Positions 551-64,000 of a stretch of DNA of 64,000 bases are shown here, piece by piece (position 1 is the first letter of the stretch; each line of letters starts with the position of its first letter). The DNA is from Protoeuglena noctilucae (lineage: Eukaryota): the NCBI GenBank assembly GCA_958009085.1, contig OY253679.1, forward strand, positions 930,001 through 994,000. Reading direction: 5' to 3'. The position numbers and the translations under genes were made by a program. The notes beneath the pieces were generated by a model, which was not told the origin of the DNA, did not search any database, and worked only from the letters and a program-made list of their open reading frames with translations.

Positions 551-3201
551 TCAAACCTTAACGCTCACCTTGTCCCCCTTTCCGCTCCCTGCTTCCTTCT
601 CCCCCCTCCGCCCCTCCCCACCGCTCCCCTCCGCCTTCACCACCCCCCCATCGTTCCCCTCCCTCTCCCCCTTTCCCTCGTTCCCCGATTTTCCCTCACT
701 CCCCGATTCCGCCGCTTTCCTGGCCCGGAACTTGTCCCCCTTCTTCTTCCTAGCACCCATCTCCTTGCCCTTGCCCGTCCCGCCCTTGCGCACCTCCTTG
801 GCCTGGCGCTCCTCCTCGGACTGCGATATAGATAGAGAGGGAATATAATATAATATAATATAATATAATCACCTTACAGGCGCATCGCTCCATTATAAGT
901 ATATTATTACTATTATTATATCAACCATATAAACACGCGCATCTACCCCTCACCAGCACGACCGGCTTGCTGCGCGCCTCGATGGCCTGGATCTTCTGCG
1001 TGATCGACGCCTCGATGCCTGGCTTGAGGGTGTTGCGCAATATGACCTGCTGTCCCGTGGTCAGCACGTTGTTGACCAGCCAGTAGAGGGTCAGCCCGCT
1101 GGGGACGTTCAAACTGAACCAACCCAACATGAGGGGCAGCGCCTGTAAGATGAGCTGCACCTGCTTCTGGCTCGGGTCGTCCGTGTTGGTCTGCAGAGGA
1201 AATTGGAAAATGGCATTTATGAAAATATATTATTATGATTATAGTAATAATGATGATATAACGCAGTGCGATGTTACCAGTTTCACCATGCACGCAGTTG
1301 TGTTAACCTGAAGTAAACAAATCCACCAGCTCATCACCCCTATTAACACCCCTCGCCTGCGGCGAGATGATCTTCTGCGATGCGTACTGCGACAGGATGA
1401 GCAGGACCGGCAGGATCAGGTACGCCCCCGCGTCGTGCCACCCCACGGGTGGCTGCCCATCCTCAAATGGGAACAGCCACGACAGCCCCGACCCGCCCTG
1501 TCGGTCCATCGCCGATACCGGGCCGCTCAATGTGGGGATCCAGAAGAAGCCCTCCTTCAGCAGCCCCTGGTCGGCCGCGTTGGTGAGGGCGCGGTAGAGG
1601 CCAATCCAGACGGGCAGCGTGACGAGGGTGGGCAGGCAGCCCGCCAGGGGGTTGACCTCGGCCTCGCTGCGGGTGTTTCAGGGGATGGGAGTTGTAACAA
1701 TAACAATGATTGTAATGAACATAAGTTACTGTTACTATCAGTTGGTCAAATGTTAGTCAATCAGTGAAGCGCCCTTGCTCTTTGCCAATCCACCAGTCGC
1801 TGCCCCGACTGCCTCACCGGTACAGCTGCAGCTGCTCCTGGTCGGTCACTCCCACCATCACTCTCACTATATCTATATCTATAACTATAACTATCGCTAC
1901 ACCCATCTACTTCACTCACCGGTACAGCCTTGCCGTCTCCAGCTGCAGCTGCTCCTGGTTGGACCCGAACTTGGCCTGCAGCTCCTTGATCTTCGGCTGG
2001 AGCACTTGCAGCGAAATGGTCGACTCCACTTGCTTCTGTGATAGGCAAACAAAGGGGGCAGAGGCGTGGGATGACATCGTGATTGATTGCCATTGTGAAG
2101 CAAGCGCGTCTGTGCATCACCACTGACGGTGCTCAGCATCCACAACACCACCCTCCTCTCCCCCATAACCCAGCCAACGCAGCCATCCGCCCCACCCACT
2201 GCACGCCCCCCCCCCCAACAAAAACTCACCTGGGACAGCGGCCATGTGACCAGCTTGACGGCGAGCGTCAACACGATGATGGAGAAGCCGTAGGCGTAGG
2301 GTACGTTGAGCCCCTCCAGGACCTTTTCGATGCCATTCAAGGCCGCCTCGAGCGGGCCCGCCAAGAAGCCAAGGAACCCGTTGTCCGGCTCCTGCGCAGC
2401 GAAGCGAAATAAGTGGATTATGGTCTCGACAAACTCCGCCGGGCGTTCGCCGGCGCGCGGCGGGCGCGGCGGGGCCGCGCGGCCACGGCGGCCATCCGAC
2501 CTTTGGCACGGCGTCCGTGACGGGGGCCACCGCATCCGCCACGTCCGCGAGGACCGCCAGCTGCGAGACGATCTTGTCGATGCTGTCCTGCGAGGGGCGG
2601 GCAGGCACACTGAACCTATCGGCCGCTGCGAGGCGACAAACACCGGGAGGCAGCGCACGGGCTGGCACGGGCGCGGGTGCGCGCGAAGACCGCCCTCCCT
2701 CCGCGACCGGCCTCTCTAGACCTCGCCCTTTCCCCCCGCCTCGGTCTATCGCGCTCCAGGGCCAGCGAGACGGCGGGGGAGGCTGAGGCCGAGCAAAGTG
2801 CACGCCCCGGACCACGGAGCGGGCACCGGTAGTCTCGGCGAAGGTCGCGTTTGGACTCTCCCGCGACCCTCGCGCGCGCACAGCATCGGGACGGCCGCGG
2901 GGCCCACAAGCGCCCGGCCTTGGAACGGATGACGCCCGCATTCCCCAGCGGCGCGCCCTCCGGCGACAATCGGGGGCCGGGGCGCGGGAAGGAAAACGAA
3001 CGTGGCGGGGAGCAGACGGGCAGGGCATCCGGCCCCACGGAAGCAGCCCGTCACCTCCAGCCCGGCCCTCTGCACGACCGCAGCGCGCGCTCGCCGCGAT
3101 GGCAAAGGCGCCGCGATCCCCATCACCCCCCTCCCAATCCTAATGCTCGGGGCCGCGCAAAGGCCAGCCCTCGCCGGCGCGGCCAGCGCGGCGGGCGACA
3201 T
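551..3201 (-). CDS. ALB3: Thylakoid membrane insertase ALB3/Alb4 (YidC/Oxa1 family), multi-exon, with plastid transit peptide
   Basis: Spliced exons give PDNGFLGFLAGPLE..VPYAYGFSIIVLTLAVKLVTWPLSQ, EVNPLAGCLPTLVTLPVWIGLYRALTNAADQGLLKEGFFWIPTLSGP, GWHDAGAYLILPVLLILSQYASQKII and LPLMLGWFSLNVPSGLTLYWLVNNVLTTGQQ, plus a basic tail with GDKFRARK. The ATG at 3201 begins an Ala/Arg-rich transit-like peptide; TGA at 551-553. Confidence 0.93.
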
Positions 3202-3581: not shown

Positions 3582-11995
<8,414 letters not shown>

Positions 11996-20141: not shown

Positions 20142-22905
20142 ATGCTGGATGCGGTAGCCGCCATCCCTGGACTGTACGTCCAGGCATGGCCAGAAGGCGA
20201 GCGCCTCAGCGCGGCCGAGGCTGCTGTAAATTCCTTCCCACACAGGTTCTGCAGAGCCGGAGCTGCCCCGCGGACCCTTCGAGCTGATACCGCGCTCGCC
20301 CTGCCACGCAGTCGCTACTGGTATAAGCCGGCTGTGGTCGGGACCGCCTCCGCCTCCCCCGGAGCCGCCGGCGCCGTGGTGGATCATGCGCACCCTCACG
20401 GCCGCGTATTGCTACTTCTTCTGCGCCGAGCAGCAGAGCGCGGGGGCCAAGGCGGCTAAGGAGGCGTTCGTGACGGGCTTGGACGGTGCGCGCGGGCCGC
20501 GGGGGTCGCCTGCCGCGCCGCTCGCCCTCAACAACCTTTGTTCGATGTTCCGCGCCGGTTGCCGCGCGTCCGCGCCTCTTCTCGTCCTATCGACTTGCCG
20601 ATTTGCACAAAGCATTCCCGCACTTCGTTTCGCAGGCCAGACGTGGTGGGAGACGGCCGCCACGACCTTCCTGCTCCCCGTGCTTTTGAGTGTGCGCCTG
20701 CAGCTGCCTCGCGCGCGCCCCGTCGGCGGCCGCTCCCCCGCGCACACCCTCTCCCTCCTCGGCGATGCCTTTCTGGACTTTCTCGTCGTCGCTGCGCCCC
20801 TTGCGCTCGTCCTGATGGGATTCGCGCCCCCGTTCGGCATGCTGCTGCTGGCTGCCACCGCCTCCGCCGCGCTCCTCGCGTCCCGGCCCCTGCTCCCCGC
20901 ATCCCTCGCTCCCGCGCGCAAGTCGCTCGCCTCCGTGCTCCGCGCCCTGGGCCAGCCGCGCAAGGCCCCGGTCGCCACCGCCCGCGCCGCGCTTCTTGCG
21001 TTTGTGTCCCTCGCGATCCTCGGCGTGGACTTCCGGGCCTTCCCGCGGCGATTCGCGAAGACGGAATACACCGGCACGTCCCTCATGGACGTCGGCGTCG
21101 GGATGTTCGTCGTCGCGGCCGCGCTGTCCTCCCGACAGTTGCCGGCGCGCAAGAATGCGGTTGCGTCGCGCCTGCGCGCCGCCGCGGCCAAGTCCGCCCC
21201 GCTGCTCGCGCTGGGAGTGATGCGCGCCGTCGCCGTCAAGTTCCTCGCCTACCAGAGCCACGTGGGCGAGTACGGCGTGCACTGGAACTTCTTCCTCACC
21301 CAGGTGACCCGAGTCGCGGGTGCTTGCTTCCGAGCTACTGACATGGCTGTGTCTGTTGCAGTGCATGTGATGGGTACCCCTCACCGACACCCACACTGCT
21401 ACCCACACCCACACTGCTACCCACACTGCAACCCACACCTACACCCACACCCACCCACCACCCATCACCCGCAGGCCTGCGTCGTGGCTCTCACTTCCCT
21501 GGTCTCCCTTCCCCCTTCCGCCCTCCTGTCATTGGGAGCGACCGTGCTGGCCCTCCACCAGGCGGCCCTGACAGCGGGGGGCCTGACTCAGTTGGCATTC
21601 GCAGAGCACGTTGTCAGTGAGGGATGGGCCAGGCAGAACAAAGAGGGGATCGTGTCACTGCCGGGGTTCTGGGCGCTGCAGGTGAGGGGGTGGGGGGTGG
21701 AGAGGAAGTTGTGTATTGTTTGTTATGAGCGCTACAGGTGAGAGCGTGAGGGGTGGAGAGAGGGAGGTGTGGGTGTGGGCCTTGCAGGTGAGCCAGGGTC
21801 GCGATATGTTGGCCAACAGATGAGCACTCATTGCTGGGGAGTGTTTGCACATGATCAGCATCAGATGATGATCATCCATCACTCTATCCACTCCCCGCAG
21901 ATGATGAGCATCGGCCTCGGCCACAACCTCCTCTCAGCCATGGAGCGCACGGCCCTGACCGTCTCTTTGCATCGACTCGACTCCGCACGCATGGCTGACA
22001 AAGCGCTGATGCACGACAGCCATGCTGTCAACAACACCAACACTAACTCCAACATTAACACCAACGCTGACCCTGTGGACATCAAAGCCAGCGCAGATGC
22101 TGCGGACGTCATCGCAGATGCTGCCACTGCCACCGCCCATGCCACCGACGACGCACAACCCGCCCGCCCACCCGCGGACCCGCCCCTGCCCAGCGCCTCA
22201 GCATCTTTTGGGTCTAAGGAACTGTCAATGACTAATGCCCATAACGCCTCTCATATATCACCGCAACTGGCGTGGGCGGCGGCCCGTCTGGTGGCGCGCC
22301 TGGGCGGTGTGGCGGTCGTGCTGTGGCTGGGGGCGGCGGTGGCATCACATTACGTGGAATCGGTGTCTCGTCGCACGTGCAATGCGGCGTACGTGCTGTG
22401 GGTGTTGGCGCTCTCCGTCGGGCACCTGGGGGCGTACCTGTGAGTGGAGGGGAGTGGAGTGGCATGGAGTGCCTGTGTCGCGTGTTATGTGATCTCGCCA
22501 TGTCACTCACCCTCGCTGTCGCCCACCCCCACTGCCACCCCCACTGCCACCCTCACTGCCACCCTCACTGCCACCCTTACAACCACCCCCACTGCCACCC
22601 CCGCTGCTACCCCCGCTGCCACCCTCACCGCTACCCCCACTCACCCCACCCCCACCCCCACCCCCCGCAGCCTGGTCGACATTTTCCTCGGCCCCACCTC
22701 CCCCTGCAATCTCGTCGTCGCTCTCTCCGACAACCTACTCCCGGTATTTCTCATATCCAACTTACTCACCGGCGCAGTCAATCTAACTATTGACACGCTC
22801 ACTGTCGGCGACAGGGCGGCGCTGGGGATCGTGCTGCTGTATTTCCTCGCGGTATGGGGCTCCGGCGTCGCGTTTGCGTACCTGAGGGCGACCAAGATGC
22901 CTTGA
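20142..22905 (+). CDS. PIGW: GPI-anchor inositol acyltransferase PIG-W/GWT1; start uncertain (20142 or 20386)
   Basis: KEAFVTGLDG, LAILGVDFRAFPRRFAKTEYTGTSLMDVGVGMFV, YQSHVGEYGVHWNFFLT, QNKEGIVSLPGFWAL, VSRRTCNAAYVLW, NLLPVFLISNLLTGAVNLTIDTL. TGA at 22903-22905. Confidence 0.95.
22525..22640. repeat. Intronic 12-bp CCCCACTGCCAC minisatellite
   Basis: About 9 tandem units before the last PIG-W acceptor. Confidence 0.85.
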
Positions 22906-28018: not shown

Positions 28019-28948
28019 ATGGCCGCGCAGGGCTCGAGCATCATCGTCCATCCCAGCACCTGGGCGTGGTACCGGTTGCTGGTGGAGCGGTACGTCGGCC
28101 AGGTAGGGATGGGACGGCACGACGGCGTGGCGCGAGCATGCGCAACCTGCGCGCAGGTCACGGCGCCTTTGGCGCGCGCTCGCCTCGTCTCCCGGCCCTG
28201 CGAGATCAGGATGTGCAAATTACAGACGCTCTGTGCAGCTGATGCTCCAAATGGTCCCTCCGAATGGCTCTGCGCGGAGCGGGAGGGGTCAAGACCCGGG
28301 GATACGCAAGGTCTCCCCGTGCGCGCTCCGTGCGTGCAGTTAGCCCTCGAGCTGGCGATCTGGTCCTTGTCGGGGCCGTTCGCTTCTCTCCGGGCGGTCA
28401 AGGAGGCGGAGACTCGGGAGGTGTGGACGCCGCTGGGGGTGCTGCGGGAAGGGGGGCCGACCTTCGACAGCCTACCGAACGAGCTGGTCGCCAAGATAGC
28501 GCGCCGGCTAGATGGACAGAGCCTCGCCGTCCTGGCATGCCTCAGGTGAGATGCCGTTCGCTGCCTTTCTCATCATAAGGTGCGTAAGGTGCGTTACAAC
28601 GCATCGGCCCGCAGCCGGCCCTGCGAGTGCACCAGCCCCCGACTTGTTGTGTCAGTGTCCCGCTGCTCTCCCAAGCCCTTACCCCGTCCCGTCCCTCGCT
28701 ACCCCCGCAGCCGGCGCTGCCAGGAGGTCGCGAGCGACGAGAGCGTGTGGAAGGCCGTGACGGTCCGCGCCTTCCCGTGGGTCCCTGCGGACCTGGAGCC
28801 GGCGTCGTGGCGTGACGTCTACCGATTCCACCACGCGGCTTTCTCCCTCGTGCGCGGGCGGCGGTCGTCGGGCGGCCACGTCCCGGCACGCGGCATGGGG
28901 GACGTGTTCACTCTCGGCACGCAAGGGCACGTCGCGCTGGGCGGGTGA
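28019..28948 (+). CDS. Small F-box domain protein (start uncertain, 28019 or 28211)
   Basis: FDSLPNELVAKIARRLDGQSLAVLACL(S)RRCQEVASDESVWKAV..ASWRDVYR is an F-box consensus split by one intron. TGA at 28946-28948. Confidence 0.75.
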
Positions 28949-40507: not shown

Positions 40508-40818
40508 TTCGGGTGCTCGATTCGAGGCTTGTGCGTGTCGAGGAAACCTAGAGTCACTTCCCCGAAGCTTTGAGCAAGAGACGAGACTCTGTTACCACAA
40601 TCGTCATCCTGCTCTTCCTTTGCTGTAACGGTGTCCTCTGGCAACAAAACCCCCGCTGGGCTTTTCAGCCCGACGACCCGGCGTGCCGAGACAACTCCAA
40701 ATGCGGGCGTGTGAGAATAACATACCGCCCGGGACCTTTGCGTTGTGAGGGGGAGTTGTGAGGGCTTCCTGCCCAGGCTCGCGGCCGCCCGGCCCTGCTA
40801 CGGTTGTCGCTGGGACGC

Positions 40819-43800
40819 ATGTACGCGGTGGACGGAGCCCTGCGGGTCCCGGCCCTGCGGCGGGTGACGGTCGCCAAGCGGTGCCTGTTCCGGCTCCCCG
40901 TGCGGCAGGGGCGGCGTTTCGCCGTGCGCGTCGCGGCCGTCGTTGATTTCGACAAGCTCACGCTTACGGATGCGGAGCGCGAGGCCGTGGAGCGCCATGT
41001 GAGTGGGCCGGGGACCACCCACAACAGTAGGGTCGCTGAGCCGCCCCGTTTTCCGCGGCTTCCGACGGCGGGATGCTCCTAAGATGTATGCGGTCGACCC
41101 GGATGCTCGCGGGCCCGCCGCGACCTTCAGGCTTCGCGCGCCGGCCGTGCACACTGCGCCGGCCGCAGTCGCCCATCGATGCGACTCGCCGGGGCAGCGG
41201 GGGACGGTCGCGCGCCCCGATTTCGCTGCCTACGATTCGTCTGCGTCCGTGGAGGTGGGAGCCGCCGGCGAGAACTCGCCGCTTGCGAAAAGAGAGCATC
41301 ATCCTTTCGTCCGCAGAAGAAGCGATGGCAGGACCTCCCGGAGGCCGAGGTTCTGCGTCGGGCGCGAATTGCGGCGGCGAACAAGGGGAAGAACAGTTCG
41401 TGGAACACGGGGAAGGTGCGTCTCGGCCAAATGCCGCGGCCGGCCGTGTGCTTGCGTGGTCGGCGTGGCGCGGCGCTGCAAGTGGTCCAAACCCCGCGTC
41501 GCGGCCGCAGAAGCTGTCGCCGGAGCTGCGTGCGAAGATCGCGAGCGCGACGAAGGCGGCGATGCAGCGCGCGGACGTCCGCGAGCGCATGATGCAGGGA
41601 GTCAAGGTGCGCCTCCACTCGGACGAGACGCGGCAGAAGATCTCGCTAGCCGTGAAGAAGGCGGCGAGGCGGAAGAAGGAGGAGATGGGTATCTTGGATC
41701 CTAACAGCGAGGAGTCCAAGCCCAAGCCCAAGCGCAAGGCTGTCAAGGCGACCAAGACCGCCACGGCAGCGGCGCCGGAGCCCCAGGCATTGCCCCAGGC
41801 AGCGCTGTCCGGGGCTGCAGCGTTGTCTCAGGGAGAGGCCGGGGCACCAGCGCCGATCGGGGAGGCCCCGAGGGCGGGGAAGACGACGCGCAAGGCCACC
41901 ACCGCGCGCGCGTCGAGGGCCAAGAGCGAGCCCCGGTCCGCGGAGGGCGCCGGCGGGGTTCGCAAGGGGGTGAGTGGGTCACGGCGCTGTTGGTGAACCG
42001 ATCTTGCGATGGTTTACGATGGCGTCGCCTGTACTCCGCCGACCCCACACGCTCTCCGTCTCATGTATACATATCAAGCATCTCGTATCTCTCAACCGCA
42101 GTTATCGGAGGAGCACAAGCGCAACATCGCGGAGACGATGCGGAAGCGGTGGAAGGACAGCGCCTTCCGCAACGAGTGAGGGGCACGGAGCGGGATGGAA
42201 TGGTTGCAACGTTGGCTGTGGCAGACGGCGGCTGGGGCTGTGGTAGACGGTTGCTATGGTGGCTGTGGTAGCTGTGGCAGATGGTTGCTGGGCCCGTAAT
42301 GGCTGTGGCAGGTGCTTGATGGGGCCGTGGCACCTGTGGTGTACCCTTACTGTCCCCGCCCGCGTACCACCCAACCCATTCCCCCGCTCCCTTTCTCGCA
42401 GGATCATGCAGCGCATGGAGATGGCGCGCGCGCGCGCGGAGGAGCGGGTCGTGAAGAGCGGCAAGCAGCCGAGCGCGCGCCACCGTTCGTCCACCCCCGC
42501 CTCCCGCGCCGTCCACGCCACGGTGACTCGCAAGGAGCGGCGGGAGCAGCGCAACGCGGAGGCGGCGGCGGAGAGGGACCTGCAGACCATGCAGACGGGG
42601 CTGCTGGAGAAGCACCTGGCGATGGAGAGGGAGGTGAGGGTGCGGGTGCCGGTTAGGGTTGGGGTGGGGGTGTATGTGGGGGTGTGCTGTGGTGGAGAGG
42701 GAGGTGTGAGGGTGCGGGTGGGGGTGTATGTGGGGGTGCGCAGGGGTGGTGCGGGACCTGGCGATGAAGATGGAGGTGAGGGGAGGAGTGCGGGGTGTGT
42801 TTTGGTGCAGGCACATGTATATGGGCAGCAGACGGTGTGTGGTTGCACGTGTACTCTCCCATGCTCCTCACTCTCATCCCCCGTCGCTCCCTGCCTTCCA
42901 CCCCGCTGCTACCCTCTCATACCCATTGTCTCTCCGATCGCCACTCACAGGCGCGGGAGCGCGTGGCTCGCGTGGAGGCCCTGGTGGGCGGCCTCAAAGC
43001 GAAAGCACGCACGCTCCGGGGCCAGCCGGCGGCGCAGGAGCGAATCGAGGAGGCGGTGGCGAAGGGAGAGACGATGCTGCGCGTCACGAGGGTGAAACTG
43101 GAGGCACTGGCGGCCGAGGGGAGCCGCCTTAGAGCCCAGGTGGCCGCTGGGGGCGGGAGTGCCAAGGGCGACGCGGGCGATGTGGCGCTGGTGTTTTCGA
43201 ACGGAGAGGGCGCGCTGGTGCGGGGGGTGGGGAAGGAGAGGAGCGGCGGTGCGGAGGCGGGGGCGGGGGAGAGCGCGGGGTTGGAGCAGATGGGAGACGA
43301 GGGGGCGACTGTCGCGGAGCGCGAGGGTACAAGTGCGTGTGCGGGTGCGGGAGGGGTGGAGGATGACGCTGAGCAATTTGCGTCGGATGCGGTCGGTGAC
43401 GCCGACGCATCCACCTCCACCTCCACATCCGCACCCCATGCGGGGGAGCTGGTGCGCGCGGGCAGCATTGCGAATGGCGAGGGCGCCTGGGGTGCGGCGA
43501 GGGACGCTCTGGAAGCGCTGGCCGGGCCCCGCGAGGCAGAGGAGAGCGAGCCGCTGCACGAGCTCAAGCTGCAGCGGGCGCTGAAGGTGGCGGCGATCCT
43601 CAGGGGCCAGTCGATGCACGCGCGGGGGATGGACGGCGGGGCGGGGGCGGGGCTGGCGGAGGGGGCGGGCGCGGGGGCGGGGCGGGGCCGGCGGAGCTTG
43701 GCAGCTGTGGCGGCCATCCCAGGGCGGGCGGGGGGGGCAGCGGGCGCGGCGGGGGTGGGGTCGGCGGGCGCGGGGATCAGCCCGCGGCGGGGGAGGGTGG

Positions 43801-46942: not shown

Positions 46943-48618
46943 ATGTCTGGCACATGCGCGTGAGTCTTGTAATCTCGACTGCGCTGGTCGCAACGCCTGC
47001 GCCGCTCGTCTCCGCAGAACGTCGCCCGCAGCGTCCTCGGCACCCTTGGCCTTTCCGACGCCCTCCTCTCCCGCGGCGACGTCTGGCGCCTCGCTCTCCC
47101 GGTCCTTCTCATCGCGCACTTCGCAGGAGCAGGTGAGCTGCGGTCTTTCCGGGCTCCGCAGCGCCCCGAGCGCTCCGCACGCGGCTGCATGGACTGAACC
47201 TTGGCGGTCCCTTGCACCCAGGCCTCCTGATCGGCTGGTCGCTGCGCCAGGCCAGCGGCGGGGCTCATCGATCGAAGAAGTCGAAAAAGGCTCCCCGCGT
47301 GCCCGCATCGGCCCGAGACGGAGGCCCGGGGGCCTCGGGGGCCCCTGCAGGCCCCGGCCCGGAGCGTTCGGGCGAGTCCGACGCCTCGATGCGCTACCCG
47401 GGACACGCGGGCCCGCACCACGAGTCGATGCCGAGGTTCTCTTCCCGAAACAAGGTTCATCCGGAGCTGCGCGCGGAGCCCGCGCAGTCGTCCGGGGCTG
47501 CCACGCCGGCCGTGACGCCGCGCACGGGCGTGCGCCCCGCGGGGCAGTGCAAGAGCGAGACGGACGCGGACGGCGCGGAGTGGCCCACGCGCGTGGAGCT
47601 GCGGCGGCCCGCCTCGGGGCCGGAGCTGGGTGTGCTCGAGTCGCCGGGGTCCAGGTGAGGGCAGGGAGAGAGGGCGGGGTGCGTTGTGATGGTGGTACCA
47701 CCACACAGAGGCTTGCTCTGCGGTTGCGTGAGAATGCCCCATGCTGTGCGTGCTTGTATGCACATCATGTCTCGTTCCATTCACTCACCGCACTGCAGCA
47801 CAACACTTGCGATGCCCCACACACACACCCGCACCACTCACCCCATCCCCATCCGCCCCCCCCGCAGCGTCGCCTCTCCCGAGCAGATCCAGGCGCTGTG
47901 CACGGCCCTGCCCCTCCGCCACCAGCAGTCCCGGTGGCGCCTCCTCTACAGCACCGCCCTGCACGGCATCTCCCTCAACACGCTATTCCGGCGCGGGGCA
48001 AACCGCAGCCCCTGCGTCACCCTGGTGCGCGACATGCAGGGCCACGTGTTTGGTTGTTACGCGTCCGAGCCCTGGCAGCGGCACGCCAGGTACTACGGGG
48101 ACGGGGAGACGTTCGTGTTTCGGCTGTCGCCCGGGCCGGTCGAGGCGTTCAAGTGGGACCAGAACAGCCAGGAGCCGAACCAGTTCTTCCAGGCGAGTAT
48201 TTGGGGGGATTGATGGGGTGGATGTCTTGTGTTAGATGTCGCGTGATGCATACACCCTTAGTCGTCATGCCGGCCTGTGCTGCTGAGGCTTGTGCATGGT
48301 GAATGCGTATGGAATCCAGTGCAGCGTTGTTGCACTGCTCCACTCTCATTGCCGTCCCGGTCGCTACACCCCCCACCATTCACATCACCACTCTCCACCC
48401 CCACTCTCACCATCCCCACCCCCCCCCCCAACCCCCCGCAGCTGGCCCAGCCCGACGCGATCGCGCTGGGCGGCGGCACCGGGTTCGCCCTGCGCATCGA
48501 CGGGGACTTGAAGTGGGGCGCCAGCAGGGCCAGCACCACCTTCAAGAACCCCTCGCTGTCAGCGGCCGAAGACTTCATGGTGGACTGCCTCGAGCTGTGG
48601 TGGCTGTCGCGGATTTGA
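46943..48618 (+). CDS. TLDc domain protein (OXR1/OXR5-like)
   Basis: LPLRHQQSRWRLLYSTALHGISLNTLFRR..PCVTLVRDMQGHVFGCYASEPW..YYGDGETFVF..FKW..NQFFQ/LAQPDAIALGGGTGFALRIDGDLKWGASRASTTFKNPSLS..EDFMVDCLELW. TGA at 48616-48618; 5' exons inferred. Confidence 0.92.
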
Positions 48619-48651
48619 ATGGGGATGGGGGTAGTGTTTGGGGGAGTTGAA

Positions 48652-48673
48652 AGAGAGAGAGAGAGAGAGAGAG
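48652..48673. repeat. (GA)n microsatellite
   Basis: Perfect GA run between the TLDc stop codon and its downstream echo. Confidence 0.9.
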
Positions 48674-49002
48674 ACCATGCATGGTCGACTGCCTCGAGCT
48701 GTGGTGGCTGTCGGGGATTTGAATGGGGCTGAATTAGGGTAGTAATGGGGCTGGGTTCGAATGAGGGGTTGCCGTTGTTACGGTTGACTGTGGCAGGTGG
48801 CCCACTTGAATAAAATGGCTCGTCTTCAATCGCGGTGTTCATCACGGAAAGGCCCTTAATCCATACCACAGCTGAGCCCTAGCGGTGCCTCAGAGCGCAG
48901 CCAAACACCGACGCAGCGCTTCGACGGACCCACCAAGCCATTGCCGTGCTACTCCCTATCTATGAACATATATATGCCCTTTCGACATCTATGCCCTTTC
49001 TA

Positions 49003-52000
49003 TCAAAGCAGTCGGTTCTGCTGGTGGGCGCGTGACATGATCCCCAGCCGAGGGTCCTCGTCAATGTCGTCGTCAAAGTCATCCAAATCATCGATATCGT
49101 CGTAATCACCACCAGTAACACCACTCACACCGCCACCACTACGTGCAGCAGCACCAGCCACCGTCGTCACGCCCGCACGCCGCCTGTCGTGTGCCTCCAT
49201 CTCCATCTCCATCTCGTCTTCGTCATAGAGCGATAGGTCCGATGCGTCGTGGGTAACCACGGGAGCCGCAGTCGGCGCGGCACGGGGCGCAGGGGCAGCG
49301 GCGGGGGCGACGGTACCGGCTGTATTGCTACCCGCACCGCCACCCACACCCGCACCGCCACCCACACCCGCACCGCCACCCACGGCCGGCCCAGTGGCAG
49401 CCGCGGCTGGGCGAGGGTTGGCGGCGGTCGCAGCGGCCATCGGAGCAGCGGTGGCGGGGCCAGGCGCGGACCCGGCCTGCCCCGCAGTCGGTGCGATGCC
49501 CGCCTTACTCTGTGCCTGTGCCTGTGGCTGTGCCGATGGCTGCTGCTGCGGCTGAGCCGTGGCTTGCGGCTGCGCCAATGGCAGTGGCTCGCTTGTCGCC
49601 ACCGCCCCGCCCTTGCTTAGCCCCGCCTGAACAGCCCCCGCACCCGCACCCTTCGCCACTCCCGCACCCGCACCCGCACCCACTCCCGCACCCACCACTG
49701 CACTCGCACTTGCCCCAGCACCCGCCCCCGCCCCCGCCCCCCTCGGCTTCCCCGTCTGCGGGTCCAACGCCACCGCCTTATCCGCACTCTGACGCACATC
49801 CGCCACACTTGCCCCAGCTACCCCAGCTACCCCAGCTGCCCCCACCGCCCCCACCCCAGCATCGCCTTGCTTGCCCCCCGCCCCTCCTACTGTCATGGCC
49901 TCCGTGTGCATCACGTGCAGCGTCTTGGAGCCATCCATGTCCGCCATCGCCTTGTACAGGTTGCCCATGTTCACCTCCACCTCCCGCAGCAAGGGGTGGT
50001 CGCGGGCCGCGCGGCGGGACTCGGCGTCCACGGCAGAGAGCTGGGGGAGAGGGAGAAGGTGAGTTGGTGAGAGTTGTTGAGAGAAGGGGTGAGAGAGTTG
50101 GTGAGAGAGGGTTGAGCGAGGAGGGGTGAGGGGAGAAGCGAGACATACACCCCACCACCACCACCACCACCACCCCCGCAATCACCAACATCCCCACCAC
50201 CCCAACATCACCCCCCCCCACACACACACTCACCAGCTCCCCATCCGCCGCAGCGTCCGCCTCGCACACCCCCACCGTGCGCCACTGGAACACGCACTGG
50301 TCGCGCCCCCCAACCGAGAACACCCATCGATCGTCATTGGAGAATCTAACACAACTGACATGGGAGCTGTGTCCTTTGAACACGCGGTGGGGCGCGTCGT
50401 CCCAGACCACGGGGTAGTTGAAGAGTCTGACACTGGCAAAGTCGTCGCCAGAAACGAGGTAGCCGCAGCCCCGGACGCCGTCGGCGGCGCTGGCGGGGGG
50501 GGGCTCCACGATGCGGGGCTGGCCCTGGTACTGCGATTGAAAGTAATTAGGATATATGAGATATGGTAGATATGGGAGATGAGAGGGTGGGAGATGGGAG
50601 AGAAGAGGTGAACACAACCCCACACTCCCTCCACACCCCCACTCACTCCCAACACCCACACCCCACCCAATACACCTCACCTGCACGAGCTTGGCGGCCC
50701 CCCTCCCCGCCCGGTCCACCGCATTCACGTCCGTGCGATCGGACCCGTCCGGCCATATCCCCATCACGTCGAACCCGTACGGGCCCGTCACCGTGTGCCA
50801 CTGCGTGTCCCTCTGATTCTGCGACACCTTGCGGCCCGTGCGGGGGTCGAAGTAAAGAACCTCGGTGGCAGCGCACTGGCTGCGGAGCAGGCACCTGCAG
50901 GGGTAAGTTGGGGGGAGGGGGTTTGGGTTAGTATTGCTACTTTATTGCATTGATAATTACGATATTATAATGCTATAATATGTACATGTTATTATAATTA
51001 CACAATAATATAATTACAAGTATTTTCACAATTATTGATACACTATGTTCTACTATTATTATTGTCATACACCCAACCCCCCAACACTCGCCTCTGGTAG
51101 TACTTGGCCGGCTCCTTCTCCTGCACCGGCAGCGACCAGTCGACAAACTCCACGCTGGCGCTGTGGCCCACGCACCGCGACACGAACTGATACCCCTTAT
51201 CCACGTCGTATATATCCACGCATAAGTCCGCGGACGCCACGGCTAAGTAGTGCTCGGGGCTACCGGGGGGGGTGTAGCACATGTCGCGCAATGCCCCATC
51301 CCCACGCTTGTGGGTCAGTAGGGGTTGTAATGTGACGGCGTCTAATATGAGCAGACGGCCGCGCTCGCTGCCCACGGCGAGGTGGTAGCCGGAACCCTGG
51401 GGGTGGAATTGGGGGGGGGGGGGGGGGGGAAGTGAGTTGGGGTGGATGGGGTGGGTGGTAGTGGCGGTGGCGGTGGGAGTGGGGGTGGTGCGGAGAGCGG
51501 TGGTGGTGGTGGAGCGGGCACTTGAAATGAAAGTAGGCAGCGGTGTGAGATGAAGACAAGACATTACTACATCATATGTATCCATCCCTCGTCATCCCCC
51601 ACACCCCCCAACCCCCGCATCCCTCACCTGCTGCGGCTGCCAGTTGGGTATCTTGGCCGACGCCGGCACCGGCTGCTGGGAGAAGGCCACCGACCGGCAC
51701 GCCATTCCCAGGTTCGCCTTGCACCGCAGGGACCGCATGGTCGCGTCCCACACGTACGCAAACCCGGCCGCGTCGACCGTGGCGAACACCGATGGGTCCG
51801 AGGGGTGCACGGCGCAGTACTCGGTGCTGTCGGTGTGGCCGTCGATCAGGATCTGTGGGAGATGGTGGGTTTGGATAATGATTACATTCATGGTGTTATA
51901 ATTACAATGGTTAGTACTCGGTCGAGTCGGTGTGGCCCTTCTTACCCACTACCATGACAGCACATATAACTGCATATCCATCAATCACCCCCACCCCCCT

Positions 52001-55000
52001 CTCACCTCCGGGTTCTCGTCCACTACCCCAACACTGCACACACATCACCACATCCAACCACCACATATCAGCACATATAAGCACGTAACCATCCACCCCA
52101 TCTCCTCTCACCTCCGCCTTCTCATCCACCTCCCATATGTCCTGCTGGTTCGTCCCAGCGATGAAGTCCTCACGGCTCGGATCGGGGTGACACGCCAGAC
52201 CGGACAAGATGGGGCGGACGCTGTTGCTACCACCACCACTCGCACCACCCCCACCATTACCACTCCCACCCCCAACTCCCTTCTCCATCAGGTAATGCTC
52301 CACCTGCTGACATCCGCACTGCCCCGACTGACCCAGCGATGCGCAGGGCGTACCCACACGCTCGCACACTTTACGCGCACGCAGCGCCGCCCCCCTCGCC
52401 GGCTGCCCGGTGGGCGTGCGTCCCGGCGGAGCCGTCAGCGACCATTCGCGGATCACCCCGTCGCCTCCGCCAGAAACGAGCGTGTTATCCGCACGCAACT
52501 CCAGCACCGCACACCCCGCTTGCACCGCCGAACCCTCCGGCCCCGTCCCCAGCACCGGCCCCGGCTCATGCGCTGGTATGACCGACACCAGCGCATACGG
52601 CTTGCCCGCTCTGGTCGGGAACGGCGGCACCCACACCCCGATGCTGCCGTCCGCAAAGCCGGTGACAATGCAGCTGTCGCCGGGGGCGTGTCCCCTGTGC
52701 ATGGCCGGCACCCACTGCAGCGACTTGACCGTCAACACCGGGAATCTCTCGAACTGGGCATTGGTGGCAATCCACTGGGGCTCCTGGTTGTCTTCGTCCG
52801 ATAAAAAGTAGGTGCGGAGGTGTTTGGAACCAAAGGTGGCGAACTCGCTGCCAGGGCCGCCGTCGTTCCTGCGATAGGGATTCCACACTGCACCGTAGAC
52901 CTGGGGAGGGACGCCGCTGTAGCCGGGGGTGGCGACCAGCAGCTCGGCGCTGTTGTCGCGCACGCGGGAGCCGGGGCGGAGGTCGCCGTCGGGGACTGCG
53001 GTGGGGGGGAAGGGGTATATGGGGAGTAAGAGTAGTTCTAGGAGTGGTTGAGTGGGATGGTGATGGGGGGTGGGGTGGTAGTGGGGGTGGTGGGGGCGGA
53101 GGTCGCCGGCGGGGACTGGGGGGGTGAAGGGGGGGGGGTATGAGATGGTGGGGTGATGGAAAGGGTGGAATTGTTAGAGAGCGTCCTGTGTGACTGCGAG
53201 GGAACTATGCAGACGTGCATGGCAACCCCCCCCTGTCAACAACAACAGACGCCCTCTCAACCACCCCACCATCCCCCACCTGCGTTGTCCATCGCCCCCC
53301 CGTCCGGCCCCATCAGCCCCGCCCTGGCCCTGGGCATGCTCCTCTCGTTGCGCGCACCCTCGAGCAGAGACTGCTTGCCGTCCTTGTCAGAATATGTCGC
53401 GTATTTCGCCAGAATGCCAGCGTCGTCCGCCTCGTCGTGGCCGGCGTGGGCCTTGTCGCGGTGGGCTGCAATTGAATAAGATTGGGAAGAGTTATCTGAG
53501 TGATATGAATGATATGGTGATAGCACAGACGATTGGTTCATGGTGAAAAAAAAAAACATTTATAGGTGCAAAACAATAACAACAAAATAAAATTTTCGTA
53601 CAAAGACAATATATATCAATAATTAAAGGTACGCCACCCCTCATTTTTCTCCCAGTAGAACCCCCTGGCCTCCAGTTGCACATTGTTGCAGACATAGTAC
53701 CCACGGTAATAGCAAATTATTAGTATACAATATAATATTGAAACCCCCCTTTCTCGCCTTTCTCCCAGTAGAACCCCCTCGCTTCCAAATCATGGACCTT
53801 CTTCCCCGGGGCCCAGTACCACCCCGGCACATACAGCGCCCTTTGCAGCAACTCGGCATTGGGCCTCCCGTTCACGTACGCCTTGCCCCCTGTCCACCAC
53901 CGCCACACGTGCACGGTGTGGTGGTTGTCCGCGCAAACTGGGGGGGTTAGGGGGGTGGGGTGTGGTGTGGTGTGGTGTGGTGGGTGTGGTGGTTGTCCGC
54001 GCACACCGGGGGGGACAGAGGGGGGTAATGATGAATGGTTGTGAGAGCGCAGTGGGGGGTGCGGGTACTGTTCACGCCACTGGTTGATGCAACTTAGTAA
54101 CCATCCACGCCACCAGTGCCAACACTCGATGCGATAGTTATCACCCATAGTCACCACCCATACCACCCACCCCCCCTTCCCCACTCACCCGTCACCAGCA
54201 CGTCCCCCCCCTTGTCCCTCTCCCCCATCAGCGCGCTTCCGCTGAAGGCGCACGCAATCACCCCCCGCATCTCCTCCCCGTGATCGATCCTCTGCAACTG
54301 CGTGCAATCCTCGGTGTCCCACACGCACACGTAGGGCCGCCCGTCGGGTCTATCGTCGTTGCGCTGCTGCCCCGTCGCCACGAATCGCCGGTTGGGGTGC
54401 ATGGCCATGCACAGCACGTTGTTGGAGTGGCCGAAGAAGTAACGCTGGCTGCGCTGCTTGTTGGCATAAGCCCCCTTGTCGAACACCACGCCCACGCCCG
54501 CCACAAAGTACACGATCTGGGGGGGTGGGGTGGGGGGGATGAGTGGTATTAGTAGATGATATCAGTAGTAGATGGTATCAGTCAGTTGGTAACTGGGATC
54601 GGTAGCCCTATCTGAGAGCACGGCACACGCTCGTTTGCACGACCGCCCCACCCCACCACCCATCCAACATCCCCCCTCATCCACCCCCCACACTACCACC
54701 CCAATAATCTCCCAATAATCCCAATAATCATCCACTCCTCGCCTCGTTCTTGTGGTTGAAGAAGAGGTTGTTGTCGAGGTTATCATTGCCCTCATATCCA
54801 TACACGTGGTCCAGGAACAGCGTGGCCCTAGGGCCATGGGCTGATCGATAAGCGACCTCGGGTTCGAATCCCGTCGGGGGGAAGACGCCCGTGAGGGATT
54901 TGGGGTAGACGATCTTGCAGCCCCCGCAGGCGAGGGCGACGTCGGCGTCGGTGGCCAGGCCGTTGCGGCCCAGCTCCTTGTTGTCGAGCAAGATCTGCGG

Positions 55001-60806: not shown

Positions 60807-61106
60807 GAGATGTGAGATCGGGATGTGGGCAGTGAGCCCTGCTGCGCCTGTACGTGCTTGCTTGTGTCCTATGCATGGCTGTGGCATGCTTACTGCCGCT
60901 GCTGCTGCCGTCAGTGATCTTGAAAGCGATTGCATGACAGACGCAGCAGCCAGCCTCGTGCGAGTGTTTCAACAGCGCCCTTTGCTCTCCCTACAACATC
61001 TCTCCCCCGTCCCTGCCCCTCCCGCATGCGTCCAATCAAACACACCCCACCCTCTCTCCCCCTCCTGCATACGTGTTGTCAACCACATCCCTTTCCCATC
61101 TCCCCC

Positions 61107-64000
61107 TCACGCGTGCTCCAGCGTGGCTGCCCCCATCACGCTCTCCAAATACGCGTCCCCACTCGCGTCGCGCCTCAGATCAGAGACCAGGGAACGGGAG
61201 CGGGAGAGGAGGGCATCCGCAGAAAGCGTGTCCAGGGGCTGCGTGTGATGGGCGGGAGAGGTGGGGGGTGAGGGTGGCAGTGGGGGTGGCAGTGGGGGTG
61301 GCAGTGGGGGTGGCAGTGAGAGATGAGCAGCGTTGCGCTCAGATGCGCCGTATTACTGTCCACTCCACACCCACGCTCACCCCACCTCCCATCCCACCCC
61401 AACCACCCAGGCCCCCCCACACACACTCACCAGCTCCGCAAAATCCCTCAAAAACTTCCTCAGCCGCGCCCTCCCCCCCCTCTCCCCCTCCCCCTCCCCC
61501 CTCCCCCTCTCTCCCCCTCTTGCGCCCCCCCTCCCTCCCCTCCAACTCCTTCGCCTTCACTCTCGCCGCCTCCACCACTGCTTTGGGGAAGTTGGCATAC
61601 TCCGCGACGTGAATGCCGAAGGACTGGTCGCACGCGCCCTCTCTGACCTGGTAGAGCATCGTCAGTCGGCCCGTGTCAGAATCCACGGCCGTCTCCACGT
61701 GACTGGGGGGGAATGAGTGGGGGAGCGAGGGAGTGAGGGAGTAATGGATGGGGGATAGAGTTGGGATGTGTTGTGTTGTGTGGAGATGAGGGTGGAGTGG
61801 GAAGTGAGTGAGGAGGGCATAGGTGAACGAGTGAGGTGGGGGGTGCATGGGCACTGACTGACTGATCCCTCACGCTGTCATCCGCCCCCACTGCCCCCCT
61901 CAACACCATCCACACCCCACACACTTACCCCTTACACACACACCCGCACACTTAACCACTCTCCATCTCCCCCTCACCGGTTTGCCACCCCCACTGCCCC
62001 CCTCAGCGCCGTCAGTTCGTGGAAGTGCGTGGCGAACAGCGTCGGCGCCCCCACGCGCTCCATCAGATGCTCGGATATGGCCCACGCGAGACCAAAGCCA
62101 TCGTAAGTGCTGGTGCCGCGACCCAATTCGTCGATGATGACCAATGAACGACTGCTGGCGCCCTTGAGGATCGAGGCGGTCTGCGGGGGGGGAGGGGGGA
62201 GTGGGTGAGGAGGTAGTTGTGGAAAGTAATGGTGAGGATGAAGGGGGGTGGTGAGGGGGTGGGGCGATCTCAGCCATGACCGCATCTCTGTTACATGCAT
62301 TGCCACTAGTAGTAGTGGTAGTAATGCTTGTGACAAATCATCACTATCAGTATCTACCCATCCCCTCACCTCCACCATCTCCGGTATGAATGCATCCCTG
62401 TCCTCATCATTATCATTATTAGCTAATAATCACAATCACATCCTCACCTCCAGCATCTCGGCCATGAACGTCGACACCCCCCTCAGCTGGCTGTCCCCCG
62501 CGCCCACCCTGGCAAAGATGGCGTCGCGCACGGGGATGGTCGCGGAATCGCAGGGGACGAAGCACCCCACCTGCGCCATCAACACGCACACCCCCACCTG
62601 CCTGCGGGGGGGGTTGGAGGTGAGGGGGGGTTGATGGGGGGTGGTAACGAGGGGTGGTGATGTGCGATAGTGGTGGTTATGATGGTTATAAGGGCCCCAA
62701 CCATGCACCCATTCAACCACTTCCATCCCTCACCTGATGAATGTGCTCTTCCCTCCCATGTTGGGGCCGGAGATGATCTGGAACCAACTCTCGCCCTTCC
62801 TGTGGGTGTGGGGGAGAGAGTGTGTGGGTGGATGGGTGTCAGTCACACACACCACAGTATGACAAACATAACAGCCACTGTACTACCCCAGCCACCTCAT
62901 CACGCAGTCGTTCCTGATGAACTCCACCCCATCTAGTTGCCAATCAATGTAATCAGTGACATTCAAATACCCCCACTCATCTCACCTCATCACGCAGTCG
63001 TTCTTGATGAACTCCACCCCGTCCTGCGCCTCCAGGCACGGGTGGCGGCACCCCACCAGCTCCAGCGACCCCCCATCCGCATCTTGCATGCTCGCCCGGA
63101 CGTATGGGGTGGGCGCGGATGCGGACAGATCGGCGAATCCCACCAGCACATCCAGCTCTGCCAGAAGAGACGAGACGCCCTCCCACACTTCCACGAACGT
63201 CGACGCCACCGAGACGACCTGCGGGGGGGATTGAGGAAGGGGAGGGGGGGATGAGGGGTGTGTGGGTGGGTGAAGGGGTGGGATGCGGTGGTGTGGTGGT
63301 GGTGGGGTGGTGAGTGTGGCGAGCGGGGGTGGTGCGGTTGTGCGGGGTAGCGAGGGGTCGTGCGATTGCAATTGCGATTGCGACATGCAGCATGCGATGC
63401 TGTGCTGTGCACATGGCACCCCCATGTCAACTTAACCCAATCCTCTCCCCCATCCACTCCACCCATCTCTCGCCTGCTCCACCAGCGCCTTCTGCCGGTC
63501 GTGGCAGTCCGCATCTATTACATCTACCTCCATCCACACTGTCCATACCCCCATCCACCCCTCTCGCCTGCTCCACCAGTGCCTTCTGCCTGTTCTGATA
63601 GTCCGCCTCGATCGCCTGCAGCTGCTCTGCTGCCCTGCGCATGCGCCAGCTGGTGAACTTGGTGCCGTCCTTGCGAGTCTCCAGAATGGTGAAGTCGCCG
63701 CCGCTGTAGAGATGGGGGGAGTGGATGGGGGTTGGGGTGGGGAGATGAGGTGTCATGGCAGTGCGGTGTGCAATGTGCGATGGGAGGCAAGGGGGAGAGT
63801 GATAGGGTGATGACTGGTGGTGACTGATCACCGTCACCCATATCAACGTGAAATATATCACACCCCATGATCGCAATCATTTGAGTTTCTTGCGGCACGC
63901 CTTCTCCATCAACCCACCCACCCATCACCACTACCACCACCCATATAATTGTGACATATATCACCCCCTATAGTGATAATCACCTGAGTTTCTTGCGGCA
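61107..64000 (-). CDS. MSH2: DNA mismatch repair protein MSH2, 3' part (runs off the window); apparent frameshift in a G-rich tract near 61470-61540
   Basis: [181 protein letters not shown] at 61107-61109. Confidence 0.96.
61270..61317. repeat. 12-bp minisatellite (GTGGCAGTGGGG on +, CCCCACTGCCAC on the MSH2 sense strand)
   Basis: About 4 tandem units just upstream of the last MSH2 acceptor. Confidence 0.8.

Follow-up and report, generated by a model that had tools for sequence, protein, structure and literature searches.

Intronic echoes of exon ends in an algal genome: probable scars of recurrent short tandem duplications

Echoes at coding boundaries in the window

The window studied here is a 64,000-nt stretch of DNA, and the genome that hosts it is that of a GC-rich marine alga. 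Short stretches spanning an exon end and its splice site recur within the neighbouring introns. A typical echo consists of the splice consensus plus the last 10-45 nt of the exon, and lies 55-142 bp into the intron (median 97; 21 independent pairs). A sequence-only reading of the window had listed 16 pairs of true site and echo. All 16 are present, in direct orientation and displaced by a few bases at most from the positions it gave, with cores of 13-49 nt and 0-3 mismatches. Five additional pairs were found (21666/21722, 28608/28704, 42614/42756, 48576/48680 and 61882/61985). Offsets do cluster near 100 bp, as that reading had claimed, with 13 of the 21 independent pairs at 90-113; the offset is divisible by three in 8/21. 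Its count of at least seven genes also holds, the genes being YidC/Oxa1-like, ABC transporter, GWT1, acyl-CoA oxidase, TLDc, EML-like WD40, the MutS homologue and an unnamed gene at 42.4 kb.

On the reverse strand, the YidC/Oxa1-like gene has a donor echo (1813..1959); the true exon end and donor occupy 1915-1959 and the echo (1813-1842) omits 15 nt of the exon sequence, with offsets of 102 and 117. The ABC transporter gene, on the forward strand, has an acceptor echo (4580..4704; echo 4580-4596, true acceptor and exon start 4688-4704, offset 108) and a donor echo (6764..6866; true 6764-6795, echo 6835-6866, offset 71). At its H-loop exon there is a donor echo array (11541..11747), in which the true copy (11541-11580) and the echo (11646-11685) match at 40/40 positions, and decayed older units lie at about 11593-11645 and 11703-11747 (TRF period 51, 2.9 copies). 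The GWT1 gene region contains, at a putative exon on the forward strand, a donor-like pair (21666..21760; 21666-21704 and 21722-21760) with 85 % identity over 39 nt and an offset of 56.

Three features belong to the acyl-CoA oxidase gene on the reverse strand: a donor echo (23792..23862; echo 23792-23807, true 23847-23862, offset 55), an acceptor echo array (24585..24872) and a second donor echo (25462..25568; echo 25462-25492, true 25538-25568, 30/31 identical, offset 76) whose entire 51-nt spacer can be aligned with gaps. In the array, the true exon start (24585-24601) is echoed at 24678, 24725 and about 24849, and these echoes are surrounded by decayed units (TRF period 47, 2.4 copies at 24664). 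A predicted intron on the forward strand carries an acceptor echo (28608..28720; echo 28608-28624, true 28704-28720, offset 96), and the unnamed gene, also forward, a donor echo (42614..42782; true 42614-42640, echo 42756-42782, offset 142).

The TLDc gene (forward strand) has an echo of its coding end with no splice site (48576..48728). Here 48576-48624, comprising the final 38 coding nt, the stop codon and 8 nt more, is repeated at 48680-48728 in the 3′ flank (47/49, offset 104). In the EML-like gene (reverse strand) one echo is exon-internal (51816..51937): its source, bases 16-40 from the acceptor (51816-51840), recurs in the intron at 51913-51937 (offset 97). The same gene has a donor echo with an alignable spacer (51998..52129; echo 51998-52023, true 52104-52129, offset 106). 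Further reverse-strand features are an acceptor echo (52973..53118; true 52973-52998, echo 53093-53118, offset 120), an echo at a GC donor (53646..53779; echo 53646-53666, true 53759-53779, 21/21, offset 113) in which the echo donor is lost, and an acceptor echo (53915..54014; true 53915-53946, echo 53983-54014, offset 68) in which the echo AG is lost; the last belongs to the 187-nt exon that is also echoed at 53646/53759.

The MutS homologue, on the reverse strand, has donor echoes in five of its six introns. They lie at 61882..62013 (RNA-supported intron 61703-61977; echo 61882-61910, true 61985-62013, offset 103), at 62364..62468 (RNA-supported intron 62181-62447; offset 78), at 62893..63020 (RNA-supported intron 62800-62985; 36/38 identical, offset 90, no spacer homology detected between 62893 and 62983), at a GC donor at 63467..63590 (RNA-supported intron 63219-63567; offset 94) and at 63830..64000 (intron 63704-63983; offset 103). 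In this last pair, 63830-63897 and 63933-64000 align over 68 nt with 78 % identity, and all 16 nt that derive from the exon are the same (16/16). The intron sequence next to the echo had been described as faintly duplicated there; this is confirmed, and several other pairs show it too.

Abundance, independent support and splice-site use

Exhaustive self-comparison of the window (score ≥13, low-complexity matches removed) returned 22 direct repeats at offsets of 13-180, none at 180-400 and three at 400-2000, a range equal to 80 twenty-base bins. No inverted repeats below 340 bp were found in the window under the same scoring. The excess of local direct repeats is far above chance. Within the window, echoes were found at 13 of 86 tested junctions, against 2 chance matches in 3612 control comparisons of junctions with other introns (donors 2/1806, acceptors 0/1806). 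The 86 junctions represent 43 introns, of which 13 are RNA-supported and 30 are crude predictions, from a predictor that recovered only 4/13 RNA-supported introns exactly. Five echo-bearing introns are RNA-supported, all in one gene (clustering p=0.005). Tandem repeats are abundant in the window (187 TRF rows per 64 kb), and wholly intronic repeats of complex sequence are few, at 11249 and 54550 among the 22 direct hits.

Assemblies are error-prone at short repeats in low-complexity DNA, and the echoes might in principle be products of assembly or polishing. Environmental DNA obtained independently carries the echoes as well: in contigs of the marine metagenome run X5, 61532-64000 is matched without any difference and 51444-53070 with just 1, and within these two stretches lie both copies of seven echo pairs and one copy of an eighth. 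RNA contigs from other runs splice around the echoes. An artefact is scarcely credible on this evidence; the echoes are a real observation.

The exon joints of these RNA contigs are at the outer, true sites, and the echoes fall within the RNA-defined introns. In the MutS homologue, four of the five echo junctions are canonical at the aligned joint; the fifth lies at the end of the window and for that reason is canonical at the outer copy only. None of the 15 best-supported joints uses an echo, save one alignment artefact at the window end. The echoes do amount to decoy splice sites left behind, as had been proposed, since their splice signals are mostly intact (about 11/13 donors and 4/5 acceptors by our reading of the alignments). 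This integrity, together with patches better kept than their flanks and a turnover in which fresh copies sit next to decayed ones, would be expected if the intronic copies were themselves selected, for instance because they offer U1 or U2AF additional landing sites or switch splicing to an unproductive mode. We regard such functional decoys as very unlikely. The identity extends over synonymous exon positions (40/40, 36/38), which selection for a decoy would not keep, and the stop-codon and exon-internal echoes have no splice signal. GT or AG is lost at 53646, 53983 and 63882, donor-like motifs are not enriched in 5′ intron halves (15 observed, 14.1 expected from composition), and the RNA joints just described do not use the echoes.

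Intron length, spacers and the origin of the echoes

Introns with an echo have a median length of 264 nt (n=12) versus 172 nt for those without (n=29; p=0.0004). Once the offset is subtracted the difference is gone (166 versus 172, p=0.54). The introns have been elongated, as the sequence-only reading had suggested they could be, and the gain fits one whole unit rather than a 30-nt patch.

The spacers are more heterogeneous. Local alignments give z≥2 in 6/19 pairs and lower values in 13/19. Gapped alignments are clear at 25538, 63985 and 52104, and at 62983, 1915, 42614 and 61985 the spacer bears no relation to what follows the echo. Combined over 14 donor pairs, spacer homology is significant relative to a composition-matched null (p=0.0016). 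In a profile of 13 donor pairs, the last 20 bases of the exon reach identities of 0.87 and 0.80; the value drops to 0.42 at intron +8..+17 and is at background (0.32) farther in. Exon parts of the echoes, by our reading of the alignments, are all ≤45 nt (median 23, n=19). The periodic arrays, the residual spacer homology and the exclusively direct orientation bear out the proposal of local, direct duplication of about 100 bp.

In two rival explanations the spacer was inserted. Repair of a staggered break could have added 36-115 nt of filler, with an overhang of 15-50 nt holding the junction filled in on both sides. This would account for the sharp patch edges, for spacers unrelated to the post-echo sequence in most pairs and for a net gain in length equal to the offset. 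It is nonetheless quite unlikely: some arrays repeat at least three units at periods of 47-51 nt, at least five pairs show clear spacer homology, which is also significant overall, and the spacers, ordinary 5′ intron halves in composition, have no match elsewhere in the window apart from low-complexity tracts. The second possibility is a mobile element that duplicates its target on insertion. Marine algae are known to host introner elements, repeated intron-associated DNA in marine picoplankton (PMC9481584), and the offsets are fairly uniform in size. Unlike introners, the echoes involve no element family, terminal repeats or dispersed copies in the window, and what is repeated is the host exon end. 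No sequence family unites the spacers, none of which has a further copy in the window, inverted repeats are lacking below 340 bp, the duplicated 15-50 nt far exceed the target duplications of transposons, and the echo sits within the intron, not at its far end. An introner-like origin is therefore highly improbable.

We propose, with a probability of roughly 60 %, that the echoes are scars of recurrent short tandem duplications that straddled a coding/non-coding boundary, the outer site being kept by selection and the spacer eroding faster. Units of 55-142 bp (median near 100 bp) would arise in the repeat-prone introns of this genome, by replication slippage or a flap or break-repair type of event, and would straddle a boundary by happenstance. 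Each event would leave two copies of exon end, splice signal and intron stretch. An intact message would require the outer signal (upstream donor, downstream acceptor or first stop codon), so the inner copy would remain as an unused decoy within the intron or 3′ flank, with one unit added to the length of the intron. Duplications lying entirely within exons would be removed by selection. In the G-rich, C-rich or AT-rich spacer, slippage and substitution would act quickly on both copies, whereas one copy of the exon-derived patch is under protein-coding selection and the patch would stay recognisable. Repeats would look junction-centred because the patch persists while the spacer erodes. Arrays with units of differing age would represent repeated rounds at one junction. 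The pattern at 48576/48680, where the 3′ flank has received a copy of a stop-codon region, matches without any splice site, and the process is thus not specific to splicing.

Some observations sit uneasily with this proposal. Well-kept patches lie beside barely alignable or unalignable spacers at 11541 (40/40), 62893 (36/38) and 48576 (47/49), and one duplication followed by uniform neutral decay cannot produce them. Tandem duplication would need spacers that erode much faster, or else re-copying at a later time, and a few patches that look much younger than their surroundings may indicate the latter, by re-duplication or short-tract gene conversion. With units of about 100 nt in random phase, exon parts longer than 45 nt would be expected. 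Wholly intronic repeats are fewer than a uniform process suggests, unless hidden by low-complexity filtering and fast erosion. Gene-wise clustering also counts against it, as do the 30/43 crudely predicted introns in the denominator.

Several of these points would favour a process acting at junctions themselves, as the sequence-only reading had it, in which echoes are made and refreshed preferentially there. Replication or repair problems at G-rich or C-rich tracts just beyond the splice signals would cause breaks, and template switching or short-tract gene conversion during their repair would copy the adjoining exon end anew. Similarity ends sharply 7-17 nt past the donor, at the start of the G-rich tract; the 40/40 patch at 11541 lies inside an array of 66 % identity; the pair 63467/63561 agrees at 23/25 positions nearest the junction and at 15/24 in the stretch that follows (p=0.018); and multiple rounds at one junction, short exon parts and gene-wise clustering would all follow. 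We consider preferential formation at junctions unlikely, and the break-and-re-copy mechanism equally so. The stop-codon echo has neither splice site nor the logic of an adjoining G-tract, one echo derives from exon positions 16-40 nt from the junction, the intron gains the whole offset rather than the patch, and no breakpoints or polymorphic intermediates were seen. Geometry and selection, moreover, already predict junction-straddling survivors: where introns measure about 170 nt and the unit about 100 nt, a duplication that can be tolerated must in most cases cross a junction, and only its exon-derived part would stay recognisable. What stands of the earlier interpretation is local duplication, decoys and intron lengthening. 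Junction targeting is not supported, nor is the suggested link with nucleosome linkers, and no case of intron gain or sliding was seen; intronic echoes all lie within pre-existing introns, with the offset always smaller than the intron.

Relation to known duplications at splice sites

In the yeast rad27/FEN1 mutator, failed processing of Okazaki flaps yields duplications that arise between short direct repeats and reach about 100 bp. The echoes resemble this spectrum in size class and in strictly direct orientation, and a link to the enzyme would be by analogy only. Unlike in that system, microhomology at the breakpoints is unreadable here because the units are eroded. Regional tandem duplication has reportedly also led to intron gain in a potato RdRp gene. 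In Drosophila near-intron pairs, new intron positions are attributed to tandem duplication of a coding region that contains a proto-splice site (PMC2891723), and the vertebrate ATP2A1 gene provides a re-enactment of such a gain (PMC3265369). The likeness is that a short tandem duplication makes a second splice signal and the copied exon piece is spliced out. There the duplication creates a new intron whose length is the duplicated unit, whereas here the echoes lie within older, longer introns and no new intron position was seen.

The already known analogues are single loci, such as human F7 intron 7. That intron has a 37-bp minisatellite (VNTR) whose first unit lies across the exon 7 boundary and of whose donors only the upstream one is used (PMC1557585). 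The likeness is close: direct repeats arranged head to tail contain exon end and donor, and of several intronic donor copies the most upstream is used and the rest are silent. F7 is a single locus with near-identical 37-bp units, whereas the 64 kb studied here have at least 21 affected boundaries, with units of about 100 bp. Unlike in F7, usually one or two echoes are left, the spacers are heavily eroded, and acceptors and a stop codon are affected too. Small duplications at boundaries are the most likely source of the echoes, making introns longer and leaving unused decoy splice sites. What is unusual in this window is the density of the echoes and the fact that some patches appear much younger than their spacers.

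Echo pairs in the window and in independent DNA and RNA

The sequence-only reading had described splice-junction echoes, nearby second copies of an exon end and its splice signal inside the adjoining intron, and every pair that it named was found on reading those places in the sequence. Each comprises 13-49 nt covering the exon end and the splice signal, in the same orientation, 55-142 bp off and within the adjoining intron. Five further pairs came to light (21666/21722, 28608/28704, 42614/42756, 48576/48680 and 61882/61985; window coordinates of the two copies). An exhaustive self-comparison of the window (match +1, mismatch -3; segments of at least 13 retained and low-complexity ones dropped) yielded 22 direct repeats at offsets of 13-180, none at 180-400 and three at 400-2000, the last range spanning eighty 20-bp bins. 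A looser filter gave the same picture, and the mirror search of the window found no inverted repeats at offsets below 340 bp. The median offset is 97 in 21 independent pairs, 13 of which have offsets between 90 and 113; offsets divisible by three occur in eight of the 21, giving no frame preference. The copies are therefore close and in direct orientation, as in a tandem duplication or minisatellite of the F7 IVS7 type.

The stretch is present in public runs labelled as single organisms, in marine metagenomes and in marine metatranscriptomes. One metagenome run and three metatranscriptome runs were compared with window positions 44001-64000. Metagenome contig sequence shows 0 differences over 61532-64000 and one over 51444-53070, and the echoes thus exist in independent environmental DNA; at 53071-53993 the metagenome run has depth, with no contig among those listed. 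The idea that misassembly made the echoes is contradicted by these contigs and by RNA contigs that splice around the echoes, and its probability is virtually nil.

RNA contigs define 13 introns, all G[T/C]...AG after shifting of the joints, with 10 GT and three GC donors. In four of the five RNA-defined introns that carry an echo, the contigs join the outer donor (best 15 of 38 joints); in the fifth, canonical dinucleotides fit the outer copy only, at 63983/63984. Use of the outermost site, again among the best 15 of 38 joints, is what tandem duplication predicts; beyond those joints, echo sites may be used on rare occasions. One RNA joint, 63704>63882, would place splicing at an echo. We read it as an alignment artefact: the window stops at 64000, so that just 16 nt of the true copy are included, and the outer copy alone offers canonical dinucleotides. 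Two other features of the RNA concern one metatranscriptome run. One of its contigs ends at 46570 with a loose run of 21 A, which likely marks where transcripts of the long gene at 42.9-46.3 kb (+ strand) are polyadenylated. Another is unspliced over 46707-47717, across two introns that are spliced out in other RNA contigs, reflecting either intron retention or DNA carry-over.

When the exon (40 nt) and intron (8-10 nt) sides of each junction were aligned together to the interior of their own intron, with other introns as controls, donor echoes appeared in 5/13 RNA-supported introns (scores 14-34; control maxima no higher than 13) and acceptor echoes in 0/13. All five belong to one six-intron gene, that of the MutS homologue (hypergeometric p=0.005). 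Extending the alignment to 86 junctions, from the 13 RNA-supported and 30 crudely predicted introns, gave nine donor and four acceptor echoes, against control matches in other introns of 2/1806 for donors and 0/1806 for acceptors. Units that span a boundary, carry its splice signal and recur in the intron are hence found in five of the 13 RNA-defined introns and at 13 of the 86 junctions. The predicted introns serve as rough denominators only, the coding-potential exon map and intron predictor being exact for 4/13 RNA-supported introns, with two predictions that skip an exon. Several introns whose echoes the scan had revealed (6764, 11541, 25462, 52973, 53646 and 53915) escaped the predictor, and the window therefore has at least 21 affected boundaries.

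The genes concerned have ordinary housekeeping roles (YidC/Oxa1-like, ABC transporter, GWT1, acyl-CoA oxidase, TLDc, EML-like WD40 and the MutS homologue), with a further, unnamed gene at 42.4 kb. Apart from the 28608/28704 pair, echoes are absent over 26000-42000, 16 kb that hold several long-exon genes, e.g. an alcohol-dehydrogenase-like one; they are concentrated in five or six genes outside this region. Five metagenome contigs of relatives (L001-L005), about 25 kb with 42-79 % protein identity, yielded a single match at 40-180 bp offset; they are too remote, and too short, for use as a control. On one of them, with 77 % GC, L001:1679-1909 encodes the nearest relative of the MutS exon (79 % identity), and the 4.8 kb of L001 contain no echoes.

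Anatomy of the echoes and growth of the introns

In transcript orientation an echo always lies downstream of its true donor or upstream of its true acceptor. Across 13 donor pairs, identity is 0.87 over the last 10 exon bases, 0.80 over exon bases 11-20, 0.57 over 21-30 and 0.37 over 31-40, reaching a background of 0.29 deeper in the exon. On the intron side it is 0.80 at +1 to +7 (0.55 in unrelated donors) and 0.42 at +8 to +17, with a background of 0.32 deeper in. By our reading the exon part of an echo measures 10-45 nt, with a median of 23. The splice signals are mostly intact, GT or AG being lost at the echoes 53646, 53983 and 63882, and the expectation that decoy splice sites would be left behind is borne out to that extent.

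Duplication of the whole unit, intron spacer between the copies included, is clear in two arrays where it repeats head to tail: 11541-11690 (TRF period 51, 2.9 copies) and 24664-24773 (period 47, 2.4 copies). By repeat families, the intron at 24600-24872 contains four to six units. Elsewhere the stretch between the copies was aligned locally with the stretch after the echo. Homology exceeded the cross-pair controls at z of at least 2 in 6/19 pairs, a signal that is weak overall yet significant, with convincing gapped alignments for the pairs at 25538, 52104 and 63985. For 14 donor pairs set against the 5' halves of other introns, empirical p values ran from 0.01 to 0.92 (combined 0.0016), and no spacer homology was seen by that comparison for 62983, 1915, 42614 and 61985. 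Arrays, spacer homology and exclusively direct orientation support the earlier proposal of local direct duplication. The spacers that are unrelated would suit insertion of filler DNA with a long target duplication. We consider this quite unlikely given the arrays, the homologous spacers and a spacer composition no different from that of ordinary introns.

Introns with an echo have a median length of 264 nt (n=12) and those without 172 nt (n=29; p=0.0004), with the same GC content. Once the offset is subtracted the medians are 166 and 172 nt (p=0.54). An echo therefore records the net addition of roughly one whole unit, which fits tandem duplication or insertion and agrees with the suggestion that the process elongates introns. 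A 30-nt patch (the exon-derived copy), or conversion of pre-existing sequence, does not fit as the source of a unit-sized gain. In end joining of the polymerase-theta type, short templated patches are inserted, direct or inverted, without whole-unit gain; here inverted copies are lacking and the intron gains the offset, not the patch length. Mobile elements or introners, which would bring a family of inserts with terminal inverted repeats and short target duplications, are contradicted within the window, where there are no local inverted repeats and the spacers match only low-complexity tracts, and we regard them as most improbable. The notion that entire halves of introns derive from decayed copies of junctions found no support, because donor-like motifs in the 5' halves (15) do not exceed the 14.1 expected from composition.

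Concentration at junctions and the young patches

The sequence-only reading had the process acting at junctions, possibly with a nucleosome link. Neither targeting nor that link is supported. At 48576/48680 the copied stretch consists of the final 38 nt of TLDc coding sequence, the stop codon and eight more bases, and it recurs 104 bp downstream, in the 3' flank, with 47/49 identity; at 51816/51913 the stretch copied lies inside the exon, 16-40 nt away from the acceptor, and does not include the acceptor. The echo process is not specific to splicing. Moreover, introns measure about 170 nt and units about 100 nt, and by our arithmetic some two thirds of the duplications that are not wholly exonic must then straddle a junction, so that concentration at junctions alone is no proof of targeting. 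Intron gain or sliding, also raised earlier, fares no better: offsets (55-142) are smaller than intron lengths (165-349), and the echoes are internal.

The patch is far better kept than the spacer. Half of this contrast is expected, since coding selection holds one copy of the patch. The extreme cases (11541, 62893, 48576 and 63561) go well beyond what coding selection on one copy predicts. At 11541 the patch is 40/40 identical within an array that otherwise matches at 66 %; at 62893 it is 36/38 identical and the spacer is not alignable. At 63561 the proximal 25 nt match at 23/25 and the next 24 nt at 15/24 (difference p=0.018), the distal part still lying above background (p=0.0007). Identity extends to synonymous positions, which favours recent copying over selection on the echo. 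Functional decoys, retained for the sake of splicing, are very unlikely on the same ground, and because some echo signals are lost, some echoes have no signal and donor-like motifs are not in excess.

Two processes could account for the young patches: the spacers may erode much faster, by slippage in G-rich, C-rich and microsatellite DNA, or the patches may be copied again, by re-duplication or short-tract conversion from the exon. A simple duplication model also leaves unexplained why exon parts do not exceed 45 nt, why wholly intronic complex repeats are scarce (11249 and 54550 among 22 matches) and why echoes cluster by gene. A break-and-copy process anchored at the junction would suit the young patches and the sharp edge of similarity where the G-tract starts. 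As the sole cause it is unlikely, since a stop codon is echoed too and introns lengthen by a whole unit. Recurrent short tandem duplication straddling the boundary is the reading we favour, at a probability of roughly 0.6. More doubtfully, junction-anchored copying might repeatedly plant copies of exon end and splice signal in the adjoining intron and refresh them by short-tract conversion. Boundary duplication would then be the main engine of intron growth in the lineage, leaving hundreds to thousands of natural experiments with competing splice sites over the whole genome, some maybe co-opted to tune splicing.

Relation to known systems and sequence setting

The nearest analogue is the minisatellite of human F7 intron 7. 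There the exon boundary falls within the first 37-bp unit, and choice of the upstream site keeps the downstream donor copies silent (PMC1557585). Tandem duplication is documented as the origin of new intron positions in Drosophila (PMC2891723), and the creation of a vertebrate intron in this way has been re-enacted (PMC3265369). In those cases a new intron is made, whereas here existing introns grow. Gain through a proto-splice site would make the intron as long as the unit, with its 3' end a copy of the end of the upstream exon and its 5' end a copy of the start of the downstream exon; among the introns examined, no repeat at an offset equal to intron length was seen. Our literature search found single-locus analogues and no description of echoes this dense in an alga. 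The interest of the echoes lies mainly in their density, the young-patch anomaly and a natural experiment in splice-site choice.

If the density holds genome-wide, with about one junction in seven affected and at least 21 boundaries per 64 kb, it would offer (i) a rare live view of introns lengthening stepwise from their ends by duplication; (ii) many naturally occurring pairs of identical splice sites on which rules of site choice (upstream donor, downstream acceptor) could be tested; (iii) a way to study 50-150 bp duplications, a class that is unusually active here. Gene predictors and RNA aligners will be misled by decoys that combine a perfect consensus with exon-like surroundings, as in the one misplacement at the window end.

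The window is intron-rich, with GC of 0.51-0.75 per 2 kb, which would suit a marine alga, possibly a haptophyte; Pelagomonas, at 0.45 introns per gene (PMC9481584), is an unlikely source. The introns examined are strongly polar: the 5' half is rich in G/T (mean GC skew +0.29), whereas C prevails in the 3' half (-0.47), which ends in a C-run before CAG (e.g. introns 61703-61977 and 63219-63567). GC-AG introns are common, at 3/13 of those with RNA support (46860-47017, 59638-59820 and 63219-63567), and a fourth GC donor probably lies at about 53759. This share is haptophyte-like, but Emiliania huxleyi is reported to have more GC donors, about 60 % (PMC4028052), and the source may be another GC-rich alga.

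Short-period tandem repeats are plentiful in the introns (187 TRF rows in the window). One 12-nt minisatellite with a C-rich unit and 3.5 to 28 copies recurs in introns or spacers of different genes (4960-5310, 16646-16761, 18224-18287 and 22523-22661), with higher-order periods of 72 and 84 nt at 4989-5277. At 15496-15533, upstream of the + strand exon at 15714, two exact copies of an 18-nt unit stand side by side, both ending in a junction-like CAG-GTG motif.
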